This document shows positions 1 through 9,273 of a stretch of 9,273 nucleotides of DNA, piece after piece; position 1 is the stretch's first letter; each line of letters opens with the position of its first letter. The stretch spans positions 1 to 9,273 of IMG/VR virus record IMGVR_UViG_2531839476_000009; one strand, written 5' to 3'. The stretch comes from a virus (lineage: Duplodnaviria > Heunggongvirae > Uroviricota > Caudoviricetes). A model generated the notes under the pieces. It searched no databases, was not told the DNA's origin, and saw only the letters and a program-made list of their open reading frames with translations. Position numbers and translations under genes: made by a program.

Positions 1-1
1 A

Positions 2-571
2 ATGACCCCGAATTTTGCGACCACCATGACTAACGCGCTTGCGGGTAAGCAACCGAAGGATGCCACCCTGACGGCGCTGGCGGAGCTTGCTACATCAGCA
101 GATAAACTCCCATATTTTACAGGGGCAGATCGTGCCGCGTTAACCGCGTTGACAAGTGTTGGACGTGCCATTCTTGGTAAAACCAGCACTCAGGGAGTTC
201 TTGATTACCTTGGTTTGGGAGAAGCGGCGAAAAGGGATGTGGGCACAGGAGAAAATCAGATACCGGATATGTCAGCCTGGAAAAGAAATCCGAGTTCTAA
301 TCGCTGGAGAAAATTGCCTGATGGAACCATCATTCAAATGGGAATATCAGCATCAGGGCCATTAGGCTCACCTGTAAATATCACCCTGCCGATATCTTTC
401 AGCAATACCAATTATTGTGTTGTTGCATCGTACGATAATGCACGGTCAGGTGTGTCAACAATGGTTAGTTTTGCAGCGTTACCTGTTTCACCATCGCAAT
501 TTTCCCTGATGTCATCTGTGACTGAGCAAGGAATAAATCCTTTTGCTTACTGGATTGCTTTTGGAGATTAA
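2..571 (+). CDS. Tail fibre protein, C-terminal part (5' end lies upstream of the window); constant region up to about residue 72, then the currently expressed variable receptor-binding tip
   Basis: ORF open from the window start, stop TAA 569-571. The crossover site at 198-223 lies in frame inside it and encodes ...DYLGLGE.... It is directly followed by a tail-fibre assembly gene, the Mu S-U / P2 H-G arrangement. Confidence 0.85.
   Translation: MTPNFATTMTNALAGKQPKDATLTALAELATSADKLPYFTGADRAALTALTSVGRAILGKTSTQGVLDYLGLGEAAKRDVGTGENQIPDMSAWKRNPSSNRWRKLPDGTIIQMGISASGPLGSPVNITLPISFSNTNYCVVASYDNARSGVSTMVSFAALPVSPSQFSLMSSVTEQGINPFAYWIAFGD
198..223. repeat. Left crossover site for the serine DNA invertase (gix/pix/cix/hix-like, 26 bp)
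   Basis: ttcttgattaccttggtttgggagaa. Its inner half plus core forms a perfect 15-bp inverted repeat (210-224 ttggtttgggagaag) with 2062-2076. Imperfect dyad half-sites flank a central 2 bp, as in the Gin/Hin site family. Confidence 0.75.
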
Positions 572-574
572 TAA

Positions 575-994
575 ATGGATAGATACTTCTATTCACAAAA
601 AGAAAATGGTTTTTTTACCGATTTAAATAAAGCACCTTCAGATGCTGTTGAGATAACCACGGATGAATGGCTGTTACTACTGGATGGTCAGGATAATGGC
701 ATGAAAATAGTCAGCAATCAGGAGGGATATCCGGTTTTGACAGAGCAACCACCTTTATCAAAAGAAAACCTTATTGCATTGGCGGATTTGAAAAAAAGAA
801 AACTTATTAATGAAGCCAACGAGCACATGAACAGCAGACAATGGCCAGGTAAAGCGGCGATTGGTCGCCTGAAAGGTGAGGAACTGGCGCAATATAATTT
901 GTGGCTGGATTATCTGGACGCACTGGAACTGGTCGATACTTCCGGTGCGCCAGATATTGAATGGCCTACGCCTCCGGCAGTTCAGGCCAGATGA
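575..994 (+). CDS. Tail fibre assembly protein (chaperone for the + orientation fibre tip)
   Basis: ATG at 575, 4 nt after the fibre stop. C-terminal motif ...LWLDYLDALELVDTSGAPDIEWPTPP resembles the conserved Tfa C-terminus. Sits where Mu U / P2 G would be. Confidence 0.8.
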   Translation: MDRYFYSQKENGFFTDLNKAPSDAVEITTDEWLLLLDGQDNGMKIVSNQEGYPVLTEQPPLSKENLIALADLKKRKLINEANEHMNSRQWPGKAAIGRLKGEELAQYNLWLDYLDALELVDTSGAPDIEWPTPPAVQAR

Positions 995-1571
995 CGTCCG
1001 GCGCTGTGCTGGTATCTGTTGCCGTCACCGCGTCAATGTAATCCAGCACAGCGTTAAGTCGGGGGTTTTCTGTCTGCATCAGCTTCCGCCCGGCCTGCAA
1101 TTTCAGTTGAATCAGACTAATGGAAGCCATTGCAGTATCAATCAGTGACTGACGCTGTGCTTCTGCCGCGCCTACTGCGGCGCTATGCTGTGCCTCAGTA
1201 TCTGTCACCCATTTCTCACCATCCCATTCATCGTATGGCGTTAACGGGGCGATAGTGGTTGTATTTTCAGGATAATCACCCGGAGCTGTGATTTCTTTCG
1301 ATTCTCCTGTTTCGGTGCTATAGATGATTTCACCGCGATGGTCTGGCACATATTCCCATGAGTTAAAATCTGCAGAACGGCAGATTGCATAACCAGCTTT
1401 ATGTGTAACTGGTGCATCTAAACAAGAACATGCCGGGATACCGACGCCGACAGCGAGATATTCAGTTGATGTAGAAATATATTCCCGCGTTTCACCATCA
1501 TAATTATAAACGGTAATATCTCCCGCTTTTATGGCAATGAGTTCGCTATTTAATACAGCTTTATTCATCAT
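966..1571 (-). CDS. Tail fibre assembly protein (alternative, for the - orientation fibre tip)
   Basis: N-terminus MMNKAVLNSELIAIKAGDITVYNYDGETREY... and C-terminus ...LNAVLDYIDAV...APDVIWPELP are typical of enterobacterial Tfa/gpG-family proteins. Start overlaps the upstream fibre stop (ATGA). Confidence 0.85.
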   Translation of the reverse strand: MMNKAVLNSELIAIKAGDITVYNYDGETREYISTSTEYLAVGVGIPACSCLDAPVTHKAGYAICRSADFNSWEYVPDHRGEIIYSTETGESKEITAPGDYPENTTTIAPLTPYDEWDGEKWVTDTEAQHSAAVGAAEAQRQSLIDTAMASISLIQLKLQAGRKLMQTENPRLNAVLDYIDAVTATDTSTAPDVIWPELPEA

Positions 1572-2088
1572 GCGGCCCTTACAATATAATTAAAAGCGAT
1601 GTTACGAGGACGAGTTTCTGTACCTACATTTTCACTAATTTCACCATAACGTTTAACACTACGAGAGCTAATAGCTCGTAGTGAGGAAGGCACATTAAGA
1701 CCGGGTTCGTCCGTTTTAACTATTCCCCCGTCACCGTATGTAGCCAGTATTCCTGGGTTTACTCCTTCCCGTGCACTTCCTGCGGCGAGTCCGTCCCCTG
1801 TCCATAATTCCATATAGTGTGCATGGTCCAAAATTGTGTGTGGCTGCCAATTAAGCAAAGCGCGACCAGTATCAATCCCGCGACCGTCATCCCAGCCACG
1901 AATAAATTCACCGCGTAAATCAGGCAATTTATTGGTCGGGTAAGCCTTTGCCAGTTCCGGGTATTCTTCAGCAGAAAAAGCCGCACCATTGCATTTCAGC
2001 CAGCCTGTTGGCGGAGTGGCTGAAGGCCACGGAACAGGCACCCCAACCGGTAATGCAGAGCCTTCTCCCAAACCAACGTTTAAGAAAA
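1568..2088 (-). CDS. Alternative tail-fibre variable C-terminal cassette (promoterless here; would fuse to the constant fibre region after inversion)
   Basis: Reading frame runs through the right crossover site and encodes the same LGLGE junction as the expressed fibre. Contains a tail-collar-like motif (PVGVPVPWPSATPPTGWLKCNGAAFSAEEYPELAKAYP). The ATG at 2116 in the ORF track is unlikely to be a real start. Confidence 0.8.
2063..2088. repeat. Right crossover site for the serine DNA invertase (26 bp)
   Basis: ttctcccaaaccaacgtttaagaaaa, 14/14 identical to the reverse complement of the inner half plus core of the left site. Lies 55 bp upstream of the invertase ATG. Confidence 0.75.
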
Positions 2089-2143
2089 TGCAGAGATTAC
2101 GGCTAACTGGCATCATCCCCGGTTTTTATTCAGGGGATCCATC

Positions 2144-2743
2144 ATGCTTATTGGCTATGTCCGCGTATCAACAAATGACCAGAATACAGAATTGCAGCGT
2201 AACGCGCTGGAGTGCGCAGGATGTGAACTAATTTTTGAAGATAAAATCAGCGGAACGAAATCAGCCAGACCGGGATTGAAAAAACTGATCAGAACGCTAT
2301 CAGAAGGAGATACGCTGGTTGTCTGGAAGCTGGACAGACTGGGCAGAAGTATGAAACACCTGATCACGCTTATTGAGGAATTGCGGGAAAAAGGTGTTAA
2401 TTTCCGTAGTCTGACGGACAGCATTGACACATCAACACCCATGGGGCGTTTCTTTTTTCACGTCATGGGGGCTTTAGCCGAAATGGAACGTGAATTAATT
2501 GTAGAGCGTACACTGGCCGGGCTGGCAGCAGCACGCGCACAAGGACGCATTGGCGGACGTCGCCCGAAGTTGACAAAAGAACAACACGAGCAAATAGCGA
2601 GGTTGATTAAAAACGGTCATGACAGGAAACAACTGGCGATCATTTACGACATCGGCATATCGACGATTTATCGTTATCACCCTGTAGGCGATATACAGGC
2701 TGAAGAAACAACCAGGCAGACTCAGGAAAATGAAAACCGCTAA
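2144..2743 (+). CDS. Site-specific DNA invertase, serine recombinase of the Gin/Pin/Cin/Hin family
   Basis: N-terminus MLIGYVRVSTNDQN... with catalytic-serine motif, ...VVWKLDRLGRS..., ...GRFFFHVMGALAEMERELI...RIGGRRPKLT... and a C-terminal helix-turn-helix region. SD aggggat lies upstream of the ATG. Very close to Gin/Pin as I recall them. Confidence 0.95.
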   Translation: MLIGYVRVSTNDQNTELQRNALECAGCELIFEDKISGTKSARPGLKKLIRTLSEGDTLVVWKLDRLGRSMKHLITLIEELREKGVNFRSLTDSIDTSTPMGRFFFHVMGALAEMERELIVERTLAGLAAARAQGRIGGRRPKLTKEQHEQIARLIKNGHDRKQLAIIYDIGISTIYRYHPVGDIQAEETTRQTQENENR

Positions 2744-2762
2744 TCTGACCATTAGCGGTTTT
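2733..2762. terminator. Probable bidirectional rho-independent terminator between the convergent invertase and gpU genes
   Basis: Perfect 12-bp stem aaaaccgctaat / attagcggtttt with a 6-nt loop. It overlaps the invertase stop codon and has T-rich flanks on both strands. Confidence 0.6.
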
Positions 2763-2769
2763 GCGTTAA

Positions 2770-3264
2770 TCAAAACAGCCCTTTAACGGAGCTGGCCGCG
2801 CTGTTAAGGGATGATGTGACCTTATCTTTGAAGCCGGACAGCATATCACTGAACGATGAGGATTGCAGGCGCTCCCGCAAATCCTCATCACAGCGTTCAA
2901 GGGTCAGTGAAAATTCTATCTTTTTCGCCTTACCGTAGCGATCAAACTCGGAACGGGTCGTATTCGTTCCAGTCAGGACATACATGCCGTAAATCTGCCC
3001 GACGCCATCAATCAAAGGCCAGGGTCGTCCTGTATAAGCCTGCGTGGTCAGCAGCGACAGCGACACTTCGCCACCTGTAATTTCAGGATAAAGCACACCA
3101 GAAAGAACGATGCGATCATCACCTGCACCGATATACTGCCAGCTTGCTGAACGGTTAATGCGTTCATTTTTCACATGCCGCCAGCTTTTGTTTTGCTGTA
3201 ACTGCTGATGCGGCAGCGTGCGCAGCTCAAAAACAAACATGCCGTAGATCATCATCATGGCCAT
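2770..3264 (-). CDS. Tail protein gpU-like
   Basis: 164 aa. N-terminus ...MMMIYGMFVFELRTLPHQQLQ...SWRH... and ...IEFSLTLER... resemble P2 gpU. Lies immediately downstream of the tape-measure gene. Confidence 0.9.
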   Translation of the reverse strand: MAMMMIYGMFVFELRTLPHQQLQQNKSWRHVKNERINRSASWQYIGAGDDRIVLSGVLYPEITGGEVSLSLLTTQAYTGRPWPLIDGVGQIYGMYVLTGTNTTRSEFDRYGKAKKIEFSLTLERCDEDLRERLQSSSFSDMLSGFKDKVTSSLNSAASSVKGLF

Positions 3265-3270
3265 GACTCC

Positions 3271-6086
3271 TCAATCTTTATCGTAAAAACTGCCACGCCC
3301 GGCACGGGCGCGCCGTTCCATTTCTGCCCTGACCATTTCACCGACCAGTTTCGCCAGTTCGCGGGGATTCTGCGTAACAACGTTATGCAGATGAACATGA
3401 ATTTCACCACCAAATTCGGAGGCAACAGGCTCCCGGTTACGGGAAGTTACAGGAACTGATGCCACTGGAGATCGTATAGCCTCCGCCACCGGGCGGGAGC
3501 TGGCCGCAACAACAGTGACCAGCGCCGGAGGCAGCGGAGCCGGGACCACGGGTGTGATATTAATTGCGGGGGCAGGCTTACTGACCTGCGCAATCTTCCG
3601 CTCCTGCCACTCCCCACGAACAGCAAGTGCGCGGGGCAGGTTCTTAAAGACAATATCGCCGGGGCCAATGCGTTTTTTCGTCTCATCAACCAGCTTACCT
3701 GTGTTATCAGCAATTTTGCTGAGTCTGCGTAGCGTCCCGGTATTGCTGTCTGTGAGCGGTTTGTTGTCTTTGGGTTTATCACCTCCGGTGCCATTGCCAT
3801 TTTCCACAGGCTTCGGCGGATTGATTTTCGCAAGGTCCCCCTGAAGCAAGGCAACCTTGTCCTGAAGAATGGCCGCACGCTGTGCGTCTTCGATTTTCTT
3901 GCGCGCCTTTTCCGCTTCATCCGGAAGGACGCCAAGTTTTTCAAGTATCCACGCCAGCGTATCCAGTAGCATTTTTGCAGGTGTCAGAACAAGCTGTAAC
4001 GCACCGCCAAGAACGTTACCGAATATCTCGCCAGCACTGGTACATTTATCCAGCGTTTCCTTGCTGGACTCCATCGGTGACAGCAGCGATTTAAACCAGT
4101 TAAACACCTGGCTGATCCCGCTTCCGATTGCGTCAAAAACAGGACCAAACCGTTCAAAGGTTTCGCGCAACGGGGTCAGCCTTTCCATAATCCCGCTGAA
4201 CACCCCGGCAAAAATGCCCTGATGGGATCCCAGTATTTCCAGATAAGAACGGCAGCTCCGGCAAGCGCAGCCACGATAAGACCAACCGGACTGAACAGCG
4301 CCCCGATAGCGCCTCCCAGTAAAGAAACGGAACCCGTCACCATTCCCCATAGTGCTGGCAGGACCCTGACAGCATTCATTGATCCGGTCAGGAGAGAAAA
4401 ACCAAGACGCAGTTTTGCCAGCGGACCAGCAAGCACACCAATAGCCAGCGACAACGAGCCAACCGTTGCAGTCATTGCCAGCAACGCACCGCCTGCTATC
4501 AGTAGCTGGCGCGTCAGTGCCGGATGGGCCTGCGCCAGCGCCGTCACCCTTGATACCACCCGCGCGAGCCACTGCGTGACAGAACGCAGCGGACCGTCAA
4601 TCAGATCTGCAATGCGGATGCGCAACCCTTCCCATGCACTGCCGAGTGATTTCAGATCGCCGTCAAGGTTGTTGGCCATAACCTTTGCTGTGCGTTCAGC
4701 CTCACCGCGCGCGCCTTCAAGTTCTTTTCTCAGTTTGGGTAAGGAACCGTCACCCGCTGCATCAACGAGCGCCATAAACGATGTGAAAGCCTCTTCTCCG
4801 GCAATGTCCTTAAAGAACGATACCCGGTCAACTTCCCCGTATTTGCGGGTGGCTTTATAAAGGTCGGCCAGCACATCCTCCATCGGGCGCATTTTGCCCC
4901 CGGCATCCGAGACGGACACGCCCAGCTCTTTCAGAGCTTCTGCCGCCGCCTTTGGCGGTGATGCCAGACGAGCCAGGCTGGCACGCATTGCCGTCCCGGC
5001 ATCACTCCCTCTGATGCCCATATTCGCCAGCACGCCAGCCATCGCTGCGGCCTGCTCCAGCGATATTCCCAGCTTACCCGCCACCGGACCTGCATATTTC
5101 ATGGTTTCGCCCAGTGCGCGAAGGTCAGTGTTGGTACGGGTAAACGCTGCGGTGAGTGTGTCACCGACCCGGTCCATCTGGTCAGCAGAAAGGCCGAACT
5201 GCGTCAGGATATTTGAGCCAATATCCGCCGTCTCGCCGAGATCCATGCCGCCAGCCGTTGCCATGCTCAGCACGCCCGGAAGCGCAGCCTGAATGGCCTG
5301 CGGTGTGAAGCCAGCCATTGCAAGAAATGCCTGCCCACTGGCGGCATCGCCTGCGGTGAACTGCGTTTCAGAGCCAAGTTTTAACGCCTGCTCACGCAGC
5401 GCCTTAAACTGCGGGCTGTTCTGGTCGATTCGCGTCAGTGCCTGAACGCGGGACATCTCTTTCCCGAACCCGATCGCAGGCTGCAAAAAACGCCCGGCAG
5501 CATAGCCGCCAGCCGCTGCCGCACCAATTGCCAGCGCACCACCTGTTTTCAGTTTTCCCGCGGTTTCCTGCGCGCGCGAATACCGCTCACGCGCCCGCGT
5601 TACACGCGCAAGCGCCTGCCGTTCGCGTTCAAGCTGGTTGTTGTACTGTTCGGTGCGTCTGATGGCCTGCTGGATGGTGTTATCGCTGCCTGTCAGGGAA
5701 ATGCCGTGGCGTTTCAGCTCTCCGCCAAGCTCCCGCATTTTCTGAATTTCCCGTGTACGCGATTCATTCAGGCGTTCAAGCCGGGTGCTTAACTGCTGCA
5801 TCAGCTTTTGTTGTTTTTCGCTGAGCACTGTACCCGTGCGTTGTAACTGATTAAGGGCGTTAAGCTGGCGTCGTGCTTTCACGACGCCAGCATCCGCTTT
5901 ACTGACAGCGTCGCGGGCGCGCTCAAATGATCGCGCCTGACGCTCGAGATTTTTGATCGCCCCCTGCGTTCGCTGGATGGAGTCACCAAACTGCCCCATC
6001 AGGCGGCGGGCGTTTTCGGCAGGTCGGGTCAGCCTGTCAACGGCGCTGAAAGCGACCCGGATATCAAGAGTCTTCATTGTCTGCAT
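3271..6086 (-). CDS. Tail tape measure protein (gpT-like); reading frame interrupted by a 1-nt frameshift near 4210-4214
   Basis: Two overlapping ORFs (4176-6113 and 3271-4572) in different frames. Both carry tape-measure-like sequence; the upstream piece ends in a hydrophobic segment and the downstream frame only reads sensibly from about 4200. Start is probably the ATG at 6086 or 6077, overlapping the E' stop; the track start at 6113 is a GTG. Confidence 0.85.
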
Positions 6087-6593
6087 TCCCGCTGCGAAGT
6101 GCCGCCCGCTCACGCCAGCTAACCACTTCGCCGGGCGTCATCATGAAGATTTCGGCGGGCGACCAGTTAAAAATGGCGGCAATATCCGCCACAAAGTCTT
6201 CTATGTGCTCAAAGCACACAACCGTGATCAGGCTTCCGTCGCCTGTTCGTTCTTCCCGCCAGAGTCCGCACCGCTCAAAAAATTTACGGCAACCACACAT
6301 AACTGAATAAAGTCACGGGATGCCATTTTTTTGATCGTCACTTCATCCAGTCGCGGTGATGTCACGCGTGACAGCAGCGTAAACATGGATTCCGCTTTCA
6401 GATTCAGCACATCAGACAGCGACAAATCTCGCAGAGATCCAGCCTGCTCAATAGCCCCGGTGATCTCCACATACGTGATTTTTTCGCCGCCTCGCTCAAT
6501 GGGTTGGGTAAGTTTTACGCCACGCTCACTGGTTTCTTTCACAGTGTCAGTAACTACCGTGTTTTCGGTATCGATGTTTTTCGTCTCTTTCAT
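6064..6593 (-). CDS. gpE+E' tail assembly chaperone fusion produced by programmed -1 ribosomal frameshift (about 176 aa)
   Basis: E ORF (6228-6593) and E' ORF (6064-6300) overlap with E' in the -1 frame. The slippery heptamer T TTT TTG sits in the zero frame inside the overlap. Position is immediately upstream of the tape-measure gene, as for P2 E/E' and lambda G/GT. Confidence 0.7.
6228..6593 (-). CDS. gpE-like tail assembly chaperone (non-frameshifted product)
   Basis: 121-aa ORF with SD aaggag 8 nt upstream of the ATG, located between the tube and tape-measure genes. Confidence 0.85.
   Translation of the reverse strand: MKETKNIDTENTVVTDTVKETSERGVKLTQPIERGGEKITYVEITGAIEQAGSLRDLSLSDVLNLKAESMFTLLSRVTSPRLDEVTIKKMASRDFIQLCVVAVNFLSGADSGGKNEQATEA
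6276..6282 (-). promoter_or_regulatory. Slippery heptamer T TTT TTG for the E/E' -1 frameshift
   Basis: Minus-strand sequence aaT TTT TTG agc read in the E frame as N-F-L-S; after a -1 slip the E' frame reads F-F-E-R-C-G-L. Confidence 0.7.
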
Positions 6594-6614
6594 CAGGAAA
6601 CTCCTTTCAGTCAG

Positions 6615-6635
6615 AGGCGACGCACTGCGTCGCCT
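6615..6635 (-). other. Intercistronic hairpin between tube and gpE genes (possible mRNA-stability or attenuator element)
   Basis: aggcgacgc-act-gcgtcgcct, a 9-bp perfect stem with no following U-tract on the coding strand. Confidence 0.35.
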
Positions 6636-6647
6636 GCATATTACTTA

Positions 6648-7159
6648 TCAGCCAAGCCCAAGCGCGGAACGGATGCGATCGGGCACAATGTCCTTGCCGT
6701 CCTTCCGGTAGATGTGGTTCAACAGGTCGATTTCCCACAGCGGGCGATCGTTAACGCTCAGCTTGTAGTAGGTGTTTTTGACAGCGTAAGTGTGTGATGT
6801 GGCTTCGCCCTGTTTGGCTTCCCCCATATCAATTTCCGTCACACGCCCGCGCATCTCGATTTCATACAGATCGCTTTCTGCATCGGTGTAGTATTCACCC
6901 GCAAAACGCAGCAGCGTGCCGTCAATCGTGCCGCCATACTTAAGGAACAGCTCACGAACTGCGCCCCCCATGACAAAGCTCGCATCAAGCGCGGAGTCAT
7001 CCAGGCCGAGATCAATACTTACCGCTCCCATCATGCCACACCCCGGTAGCTGTCGGTTTTGCGCGTCAGCTTAGGCAAAGTGACGGACGTCACCTTACCC
7101 ACTTCGTTTTCACCATCCACAAACAGCGTAAAAAAGCGAAGATGTTTTGGCACAGCCAT
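6648..7159 (-). CDS. Tail tube protein (FII-like); reading frame interrupted by a 1-nt frameshift near 7038-7045
   Basis: The 128-aa ORF (6648-7034) contains ...DLGLDD...LRFAG...EIEMRGR..EIDMGEAKQGE..., resembling P2 FII but without its N-terminus. The missing N-terminus (MAVPKHLRFFTLFVDGENEVGKVTSVTLPKLTRKTDSYRG) is encoded in another frame, starting at an ATG at 7159-7157 that overlaps the sheath stop (TGATG). Confidence 0.85.
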
Positions 7160-8343
7160 CAGGCACCTCCCAGCACCGCAAATGCGGGGCCAAAGAATTC
7201 ATCAGTAAACGTCTGGTAAAGCTCCATGTCTTCCAGCGGGGGAACAGGCGTATATTTGTAGCGAATACGCACACGCCCCTGACGTAAATCCGTGGTGCTG
7301 TTATCCACCACGTCATACCAGCACTCCGCGCCAATCAGTTTCCCGGCAGTAACCAGTGAATCCAGTTTTGCCCTGATGGCACTGATAACATCCTTCACGT
7401 TCGCAGGCGTCAGTGGACTGTCGATGGTTTCAAACTGCGCTTCCGCAATTGAATCAGCCAGCACCTGTGCGGTTCGGGTATACACCTCAAAGATGTAGGC
7501 GTTCGTTTCCGGTGTGCGGTTGCCCCAGAAGCGGAACCCGTTGCGACGAATAATGGTCGTGATTTCTTTGTTGTTGAGGCTGTTGGCATCGCTGTCTTCG
7601 GCCTGCAACGACCAGAACACTTGCCTCGACATCCCCAGCACATTTTTAACCGGAACGTTGGACAGTGATTTGTGCCACCCCTGCTCAATGGTCAATGTAC
7701 GCACGAAGGCCGCACGCATAAGCAGGCGCGGGGAACGTTCGTTTTTGCCACTTTTCGGGTTGTAGGCGATGAAGTCCGGCCATAAGAGCATCACCTCACG
7801 TTCGTTGAATTTCTGGCGGTAGGTAATCGCCTCAGCCATCGTGTTACAGCCGTGACAGGAGGCATACACAAACGCGCGCAGTTTACCTGCAATCACGCAC
7901 ACGGATTTTGTTACCGCCTCCGTGTCCAGCTCCGGCGCGGCCAGAATACGCGGACGGTATCCGATGCTTTCATCCTGCTCTGCAACAAGCAGCGCATACA
8001 TCCCCGTATAGCTGCCGTCATCCTCAGAACCACCGATAACCAGTTGATCCTGCGTTTTTCCGTCTTCTTCTTTGTGTTCAGCCACGCGAACGACGATCAC
8101 CTTTGTGCTCACCTGGTCTGCGATGGCCTTAAGCGCACGATAAAGCGTCCCCGTTGTTCCGCATTTTCCCAGCACGTCATTGACGCGGGTCAGCAGTGTG
8201 GGCTTGTTCAGCGGGAACAGCTCCGCGTCCGCATCATCCGCCGTTGCCACGATACCGATAACACTGGAATCAACATCATTAATCGCTGTTACCAGGTCGG
8301 TACTTTCCGTAACACGGGCACCATGAAAACGAGTTTCACTCAT
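7159..8343 (-). CDS. Tail sheath protein (FI-like)
   Basis: 394 aa. Motifs ...FPLNKP..., ...RILA.P.LDT..., ...LLWPDF..., ...EQGWHK.LSN..., ...IRRNGFRFWGNRT..., ...YTRTAQV..., ...YKYTPVPPLE... resemble P2 FI. SD aagggg lies upstream of the ATG. Confidence 0.95.
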   Translation of the reverse strand: MSETRFHGARVTESTDLVTAINDVDSSVIGIVATADDADAELFPLNKPTLLTRVNDVLGKCGTTGTLYRALKAIADQVSTKVIVVRVAEHKEEDGKTQDQLVIGGSEDDGSYTGMYALLVAEQDESIGYRPRILAAPELDTEAVTKSVCVIAGKLRAFVYASCHGCNTMAEAITYRQKFNEREVMLLWPDFIAYNPKSGKNERSPRLLMRAAFVRTLTIEQGWHKSLSNVPVKNVLGMSRQVFWSLQAEDSDANSLNNKEITTIIRRNGFRFWGNRTPETNAYIFEVYTRTAQVLADSIAEAQFETIDSPLTPANVKDVISAIRAKLDSLVTAGKLIGAECWYDVVDNSTTDLRQGRVRIRYKYTPVPPLEDMELYQTFTDEFFGPAFAVLGGA

Positions 8344-8500
8344 AGCTTCAGCCCCTTGTATCCGTTAAATGATTCGGCAACAATCATCACCCAGCACGCG
8401 CGTAATCTCACCCCTGCGCCGTTCTCCCGCCACCGCGACAACAAAAAGCAGTAACCCCCTCCGCACGCACATGCGACCATGCCGCACAGGGAGGGAACAG
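8344..8500. promoter_or_regulatory. Divergent intergenic region between sheath (-) and gpD-like (+) genes; presumed promoter region
   Basis: 157-bp non-coding gap between two divergent starts, each with a good SD. No confident -35/-10 or Ogr-type late promoter motif could be placed by eye. Confidence 0.3.
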
Positions 8501-9241
8501 ATGACCGACACCACCATGCAATTGCTCAGTCAGGGCACAGACCCCGTGAAAATGCCGGATTTTGATATTCTCGCGGAGGGTAAAACGCTGTCAGGCGTGG
8601 CAGAGCGCCTGATGAGCCTGTCACTGACCGACAACCGGGGATTTGAAGCGGACCAGCTCACCATCACGCTGGATGATGCGGATGGTCAGTTGCAGCTACC
8701 GCCACGGGGCGCGCGCCTGACGGTTCTCATTGGCTGGAAAGGAGAACCGCTGACAGAAAAAGGCACTTACATTGTTGATGAAATCGCTCACGAAGGACCG
8801 CCGGACAGGCTGACTGTTTCAGCCAGAAGCGCAGATTTTCGGGATGAATTTAACGTTAAACGTGAGGTGTCCTGGCATGATGTGACCGTTGAGCGTGTGG
8901 TATCCGCCATCGCTCATCGGTATGGTCTGAAACCGCAAATCAGCGAAATGCTGATGGATATCGAAATCGACCACGCCGACCAGACCGAAGAAAGCGACAT
9001 GTCCTTCCTTACGCGCATGGCGGAAATGCTGGGCGCAATCACCACGGTAAAAAGCGGTAATCTGTTATTCATCATGCCCGGTGGTGGCGTGAACGCACAG
9101 GGCCAGCCGTTGCCATCGTTCGCCATCACACGCAGCAGCGGCGATCGCCATCAGTTCCGCATTGCTGACCGCGAGGCGTATACGGGGGTACGCGCTTACT
9201 GGCTTGATCTTAATTACGGGAAAAAGAAAAAGTCAGCGTGA
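8501..9241 (+). CDS. gpD-like tail protein (late control gene D family), N-terminal 246 aa; possibly truncated
   Basis: ATG at 8501 preceded by SD gggaggg. Motif ...LSLTDNRGFEADQLTITLDDADGQLQLPPRGARLTVLIGWKG... is typical of gpD/VgrG-type N-terminal domains. The in-frame Met at 8369 in the ORF track lacks an RBS. Confidence 0.8.
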   Translation: MTDTTMQLLSQGTDPVKMPDFDILAEGKTLSGVAERLMSLSLTDNRGFEADQLTITLDDADGQLQLPPRGARLTVLIGWKGEPLTEKGTYIVDEIAHEGPPDRLTVSARSADFRDEFNVKREVSWHDVTVERVVSAIAHRYGLKPQISEMLMDIEIDHADQTEESDMSFLTRMAEMLGAITTVKSGNLLFIMPGGGVNAQGQPLPSFAITRSSGDRHQFRIADREAYTGVRAYWLDLNYGKKKKSA

Positions 9242-9273
9242 AACGCCGCAAACCGCCAAAACCGAAAAAGAGA

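Follow-up and report, generated by a model that had tools for sequence, protein, structure and literature searches.

Among described phages, the closest to the locus considered here is Escherichia phage P88 (NC_026014), a P2-type member of the Xuanwuvirus (family Peduoviridae). In P88, the fibre gene H is followed by tfa, tfa′, an alternative fibre tip, and an invertase gene, then by the opposite-strand genes U-T-E′-E-FII-FI, and finally by D; its tape-measure gene (2,808 nt), tube gene (513 nt), and D gene (1,101 nt) are intact. The other relevant systems are the invertible segments Gin/G of Mu, Cin/C of P1, and Pin/P of e14, together with Hin, in which a serine recombinase acts on inverted 26-bp sites with a 2-bp core. 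The stretch of DNA analyzed in this work, referred to as the window, consists of positions 1 to 9,273 of the IMG/VR record IMGVR_UViG_2531839476_000009. Exact-protein look-up and contig retrieval identified its 9,273 bp as the reverse complement of the entire contig AKNI01000029.1 from the draft genome GCA_000268205.1 of enteropathogenic Escherichia coli (EPEC) C342-62. It holds the tail genes of a prophage that is P88-like (Xuanwuvirus, P2-type) and has an invertible tail-fibre segment of the Gin/Pin type; several of these genes are broken by single-base insertions or deletions (indels). These frame breaks are probably sporadic single-base consensus errors of the 2012 draft in an otherwise intact and ordinary P88/P2-type prophage.

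Thousands of E. coli genomes match the window, and its top phage matches are P88 and other Xuanwuvirus, which share about 95-96% identity (95.8% for P88) across the aligning 78% of the window. Gene order and orientation are the same as in P88: the FI-to-U block runs opposite to H and D, and the invertase lies between. From left to right, the window carries the 3′ part of H and a fibre-assembly gene on the plus strand, then, on the opposite strand, another assembly gene and another fibre tip, and after them the serine invertase; these are followed by gpU, the tape measure, E′/E, the tube, and the sheath on the minus strand, and by gpD on the plus strand, which runs off the contig. The P2-type tail set is complete (sheath FI, tube FII, E/E+E′, tape measure T, U, and D), and Pfam assigns Phage_sheath_1, Phage_tube, Phage_P2_GpE, PhageMin_Tail, Phage_P2_GpU, and Phage_GPD to the gene calls of the contig. 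P88 differs from the window in two respects: its tape-measure, tube, and D genes are unbroken, and the cargo of its invertible segment (fibre tips and tfa) is its own and does not align.

Judged against intact relatives (P88, NZ_LR882997, CP035819, and others), the window contains seven single-base indels, approximately one per 1.3 kb. A first-pass annotation, made from the sequence alone, had counted three breaks, in the tube, tape-measure, and (probably) gpD genes, each looking like one missing base. The missing base is borne out in all three genes, but the tally falls short by four changes, namely a pair in the sheath gene, an insertion in the fibre gene, and a second shortened run in gpD. 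The tape-measure gene (3271-6077, minus strand) is split in two by a run of five A at 4210-4214, where relatives have six, and measures 2,807 instead of 2,808 nt. The tube gene FII (6648-7159, minus strand; 512 instead of 513 nt) is split into 42 and 128 aa by the loss of a C at 7039/7040. This base was earlier placed in the C4 run at 7041-7044; it belongs instead to a CC pair adjoining that run (GCCACCACCCC -> GCCACACCCC). The sheath gene FI (7159-8343, minus strand) had been listed as intact, and its reading frame is indeed open. It has nevertheless gained an A at 7687-7688 and, 51 nt away, lost a T at 7738-7739; between them 17 codons are out of frame and the conserved TFPAPAYACGLRAYIDH becomes RSPRLLMRAAFVRTLTI. 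Six bases into the contig, an extra C in the fibre gene H gives C4 at 6-9 where relatives have C3, which would put H out of frame relative to its off-contig 5′ part. The 5′ two-thirds of the baseplate hub gene gpD (8501-9273, plus strand) shows A5 instead of A6 at 9227-9231, with a stop at 9239-9241, and a second A5 instead of A6 at 9265-9269, eight bases from the contig end, as judged against the matching haplotype in locus L037. Two further candidates, at 2763 and 2768, were rejected as lesions; they are natural variants common to the nearest relatives and are seen only in comparison with some relatives.

The strongest evidence on the nature of these changes comes from a prophage at the fabB-flk locus of the complete genome CP035819.1 and of four other assemblies (L006-L010), which were found as contigs encoding the repaired tape measure. 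The tape-measure protein obtained by adding one base (935 aa) is identical to a protein of other genomes (P0136), and the repaired tube protein (170 aa) is identical to one present on 148 contigs (P0137). In these five assemblies the whole prophage is present and every tail gene is intact. Their gpU, gpE, invertase, and tfa proteins do not differ from those of the window, nor do their tape-measure and tube proteins from the repaired ones. Over positions 1-7188 there is not a single substitution. The only differences there are the added C at 6, the A missing from the run at 4210, the C missing at 7039, and the opposite orientation of the segment 207-2079. Three indels accompanied by zero substitutions in 7.2 kb are the reverse of natural divergence. 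Ten pairwise comparisons of clean relatives of the same length class each yielded about 100-170 substitutions and not one frameshifting indel; set against any of those relatives, the window has four.

The lesions are also private to this contig. They were compared with a panel of about 120-165 related loci, and further scans covered 5,426 complete E. coli genomes and IMG/VR. Neither the tape-measure nor the tube allele of the window occurs in any of the 5,426 complete genomes or in any IMG/VR contig. At the tape-measure site, 117 of the 119 aligned relatives have the extra base; the A5 allele is found in no other panel locus, and the site is shortened (to 10 nt) in a different way only in L004 and L029, both error-ridden assemblies. 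The tube variant is common only to L004, a PacBio contig of the NCTC collection with many indels of its own, which is likewise the only locus to have C4 at 6-9 when the window is set against 17 relatives. Neither the added A nor the missing T of the sheath is present in any of 157-158 relatives. Thus, at positions 6, 4210, 7039, 7687, and 7738, the lesion is private and near-identical sequences are intact. Apart from the L004 tube, the tape-measure, tube, and sheath genes of the five assemblies and of the panel are free of these changes. The tape-measure and tube deletions, the sheath +1/-1 pair, and the fibre indel at the contig edge are each very probably artefacts.

A split of the tube into 42 and 128 aa does recur elsewhere, and it was considered as proof of a real allele. 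This was rejected, as the event in L003 and L021-L030 is a different one on other haplotypes, the contraction of a seven-base G run of the coding strand. In L021-L030 (for example, AP018796.1 and both prophage copies of GCA_047262345.1), the G run of a Gly-Gly-Gly tract is one base short and an ATGA stop-start overlap is formed. The shortening of this run appears in several assemblies, some of them otherwise clean, and may either represent a pseudogene that genuinely recurs or be due to systematic error in long reads.

An alternative explanation is that the element is a genuinely degraded cryptic prophage, in which all the frameshifts are real mutations of C342-62 (which could have arisen over decades in storage or in a mismatch-repair mutator) while the switch still works. 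In its favour, the lesions are all changes in run length, as replication slippage would give, and other genomes do contain P88-like tube and D genes that are broken. The selective record speaks differently. The ratio of nonsynonymous to synonymous polymorphism (pN/pS) of the repaired genes was calculated in comparison with many relatives. The tape measure gives 0.05-0.10 and the tube 0.03-0.10, gpD stands at 0-0.08 and gpU at 0.04-0.12, and the sheath at 0.15-0.19. Relaxed selection would bring such a ratio near 1; with values of 0-0.19 throughout, selection is not relaxed, and the repaired genes are under purifying selection. No insertion sequence (IS), larger deletion, or nonsense codon was found in the window, which lacks none of the genes and is colinear with P88 and L006. 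Seven indels in 9.3 kb cannot reflect a genome-wide mutation load, since nearly every gene would then be broken, and we know of no mechanism that would aim such indels at a prophage. Moreover, two independent real events are unlikely to have produced a neutral +1/-1 pair spaced by only 51 nt, and the tape-measure, tube, and sheath lesions are not inherited in independent assemblies of relatives. Added to the absence of substitutions beside three indels, this evidence makes genuine decay very improbable, and of the earlier suggestion of a decaying prophage with an active switch, only the switch is retained.

Four substitutions private among about 160 relatives (7621, 7902, 8394, and 8434) could also be cited for decay, since they lie beside the sheath indels and show that the region has diverged in some way. 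All four are transversions. The two coding ones, 7621 and 7902, affect sheath residues Q241 and V148, are nonsynonymous, and fall at sites otherwise invariant. They cluster with the two sheath indels, themselves private, and this suggests that the consensus is of low quality in that patch. Against about 28 relatives, seven substitutions had appeared private, again all transversions, and four of the five coding ones stood at the third codon position, a natural-looking distribution. As an error signature, the private substitutions are suggestive but were not relied on, the sites being too few.

The pattern resembles that of pyrosequencing-era or uncorrected long-read consensus errors, which are one-base changes in run length, mostly deletions, without substitutions and private to one assembly. 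The same pattern is visible in other loci of the panel, including L004. Locus L051 differs from its nearest relative by five one-base deletions and six substitutions; L013 has three deletions, every one of them in A/T runs of at least 6 nt; and the sister contigs L021 and L023 differ by one substitution and four indels, one of which is at the gpD run. The proposal of homopolymer-length error was thus correct as to sequencing error, in view of private lesions and of substitution-identical relatives that are intact, and incorrect as to systematic undercalling. The window contains 51 runs of at least 5 nt, and all 11 runs of at least 6 nt agree with relatives. Only three runs of true length 6 are shortened (4210, 9227, and 9265), out of about 14 true runs of at least 6 nt, so undercalling does not grow with run length. 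Three of the seven indels are no more than 50 nt away from a contig end. The errors have a sporadic look, such as thin or poor read support would produce, and low local read coverage or quality would be their cause. On this reading, the underlying element is of a well-known kind and the indels are not a real feature of it; the true prophage would be able to build tails, having a complete P88-like tail module and a working fibre switch.

Several observations weigh against consensus error as the whole explanation. Classical homopolymer error does not typically strike runs of 1-3 bases, where four of the seven indels fall; the errors of the window, unlike those of the pyrosequencing era, are not proportional to run length. 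Drafts of that period were mostly pyrosequenced; on the platform used for AKNI01, the literature on the strain and its accessions held nothing usable. In other lineages, the tube G-tract does carry frameshifts that are real. For positions 7189-9273, no near-identical relative was found among the loci reached via truncated gpD, intact gpD, and IMG/VR, and the argument from indels and substitutions is weaker there for this reason; the best sheath match is 98.7% identical to the window, with both sheath indels still private. Further points concern gpD. The exact truncated protein of 246 aa is present on 165 contigs (186 index blocks), at no fewer than five chromosomal insertion sites. Several of its carriers are otherwise clean, with all other genes intact (L016-L019 and L032, a RefSeq complete genome); in the RefSeq genome of strain EC04, one of the clean carriers, gpD is annotated as "frameshifted." Locus L015 has both A5 runs as in the window, and over the last 190 nt of the window the two haplotypes are identical, a match that could represent common descent of a real gpD allele.

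These gpD data are the basis of a mixed case, which treats one or both gpD A-run lesions as a genuine circulating allele and the indels elsewhere (tape measure, tube, sheath, and fibre end) as artefacts. If so, the prophage would lack a full-length baseplate hub and could not build tails unless rescued by ribosomal slippage. The distribution of the two states does not favour this view. Both A5 and A6 are present at every insertion site sampled, and the near-identical sisters L021 and L023 differ at the gpD run as well as at three other indels. In IMG/VR, exact-pattern scans found A5 on five contigs compared with at least 120 with A6 (at most 4%), and all five A5 contigs belong to one range of early IMG genome identifiers, that is, to a single early import batch (Fisher p = 2e-4). 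Three drafts of 2011-2012 with consecutive-era prefixes (AFDR, AIFQ, and AKNI) all show A5, and one of them, L013, has other A/T-run deletions in addition. Furthermore, both gpD runs of the window lie within 50 nt of the contig end. The recurrence of A5 thus fits repeated miscalling at least as well as descent. We incline to the view that the two A6-to-A5 changes in this contig are errors, though with less assurance than for the other indels; they could instead be a real allele, and the mixed case as a whole is considered unlikely.

Allele counts were also attempted by megablast of 41-42-nt queries against complete genomes and were set aside: the A5 count of 2 is unreliable, and the A6 query returned nothing despite known carriers, presumably as a result of low-complexity masking. 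Many public assemblies have the A-rich tract itself (AAAAAGAAAAAAG ... CCGAAAAAAGAG; 9221-9231 and 9265-9269) one A short, in prophages of unrelated lineages and at different insertion sites, and the shortened form is found also in error-prone assemblies from NCBI and Logan. The tract is likely to be a database-wide source of false gpD pseudogenes. A distinct phenomenon is seen in many complete genomes in RefSeq, where the annotated gpD is a "VgrG/Pvc8 family" protein of 266 aa that begins at an internal start and is accompanied by a small antisense pseudo-coding sequence. The full 369-aa open reading frame is open in both loci checked (L001, 11391-12632; L036, 9017-10258), so the 266-aa form is an annotation quirk and not a truncation.

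A further possibility is that A5 is real and tolerated through ribosomal slippage. A -1 slip on G_AAA_AAG (GGGAAAAAGAAAAAGTCA context) in GGG AAA AAG AAA AAG TCA GCG TGA would be read as K K K K V S V and so restore the wild-type protein exactly. Few copies of the baseplate hub are needed per virion, as for P2 gpD and T4 gp27, so low-level slippage could keep A5 prophages viable. If true, this would account for the occurrence of A5 in otherwise intact prophages at many insertion sites. No stimulatory RNA structure was found downstream of the gpD run (z = +0.3 to +1.4), and the idea is accordingly given a very low probability.

Consensus error being the preferred explanation, the deposited sequence by itself does not justify counting the contig as a defective or "cryptic" prophage or its genes as pseudogenes. 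The same caution extends to surveys of prophage decay, in which the gpD A-rich tract and the tube G-tract collect spurious or recurrent frameshifts and thereby inflate pseudogene counts.

The relatives that are identical over 1-7188 depart from the window further to the right, with 42 substitutions in the 2.1 kb beyond about 7159-7189 and none to the left. The substitutions begin at 7189 and therefore define a mosaic breakpoint at the tube/sheath junction. It may derive from natural recombination between P88-like prophages or from a chimeric contig assembled from two prophage copies. A chimeric or collapsed contig of this kind could account for the breakpoint at 7189; it was considered and not adopted.

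The fibre region of the window behaves as a textbook Gin/Cin/Pin switch. The serine DNA invertase (2144-2743, plus strand; 199 aa) combines Resolvase (PF00239) and HTH_7 (PF02796) domains, as Gin, Cin, Pin, and Hin do, and its N-terminus, MLIGYVRVSTNDQ, places the serine at position 9 (MLIGYVRVST), as in small serine recombinases. The same protein is found on 801 contigs, and its cluster mates at 90% identity or more carry the name "DNA-invertase, prophage e14." The two 26-bp crossover sites are inverted with respect to each other. The left one (TTCTTGATTACC-TT-GGTTTGGGAGAA; 198-223) has its core at 210-211 and the right one (TTCTCCCAAACC-AA-CGTTTAAGAAAA; 2063-2088) at 2075-2076, and their inner half-sites are perfect inverted repeats. 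As in the known systems, the sites delimit a segment (210-2076; 1.87 kb) with two alternative fibre tips, each provided with its own assembly chaperone, and inversion takes place between identical sequences. The window differs from Mu, P1, and e14 in that the host element is a P2-type myovirus.

The 3′ part of H (1-571, plus strand) is constant to about position 210 and is then joined to a Gp53-like_C-type variable tip. The partner of this currently expressed tip is a tail-fibre assembly protein of 139 aa (575-994, plus strand), which matches exactly a protein on 800 contigs. On the minus strand lie the alternative assembly protein (966-1571; 200-201 aa according to the gene calls) and the alternative, silent fibre tip of Collar type (1568-2116). 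In L006/L007, the segment 207-2079 is present in reverse orientation (their 14000-15872) at 99.9% identity within otherwise identical prophages, so that H is joined there to the Collar-type tip and the 200-aa assembly protein. The flipped segment shows two mismatches only, at 209 and 2077; as both are in the outer half-sites, the exchange maps to the 2-bp cores. At the level of sequence comparison, the opposite orientation in otherwise identical prophages is direct evidence of an active invertase switch in this lineage, and in this respect the first-pass annotation, which had proposed such a switch, appears to be right.

It was likewise right about the integrity of gpU, the invertase, gpE, and both tfa genes, each of which is an exact match to proteins on 20 to 1,000 contigs. 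The tail protein gpU occupies 2770-3264 on the minus strand. The gpE frame (6228-6593) and the overlapping E′ frame (6064-6300) together span 6064-6593 on the same strand, with a slippery heptamer T_TTT_TTG in the E frame at 6276-6282. The overlap is predicted from this motif to be the normal P2-type programmed -1 frameshift, undamaged, and it is the sole natural frame discontinuity in the window.

Outside the window, the gap between gpD and ogr carries cargo that varies by lineage: a 340-aa protein with a faint HEPN match (L006, 5324-6346), SIR2_2 + DUF87 (L015, 11276-14724), a 500-aa PIN_4 protein (L017, 6247-7749), and a pair of 195 and 185 aa (L039, 3844-4991). This gap resembles the variable hotspot known from P2-like phages, and the window stops before it. 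Finally, in L021-L023 (about 12889-13611), a gene for a SopE-type guanine-nucleotide exchange factor (SopE_N + SopE_GEF) is located between gpU and the fibre genes, in the position taken by the invertase in the window.

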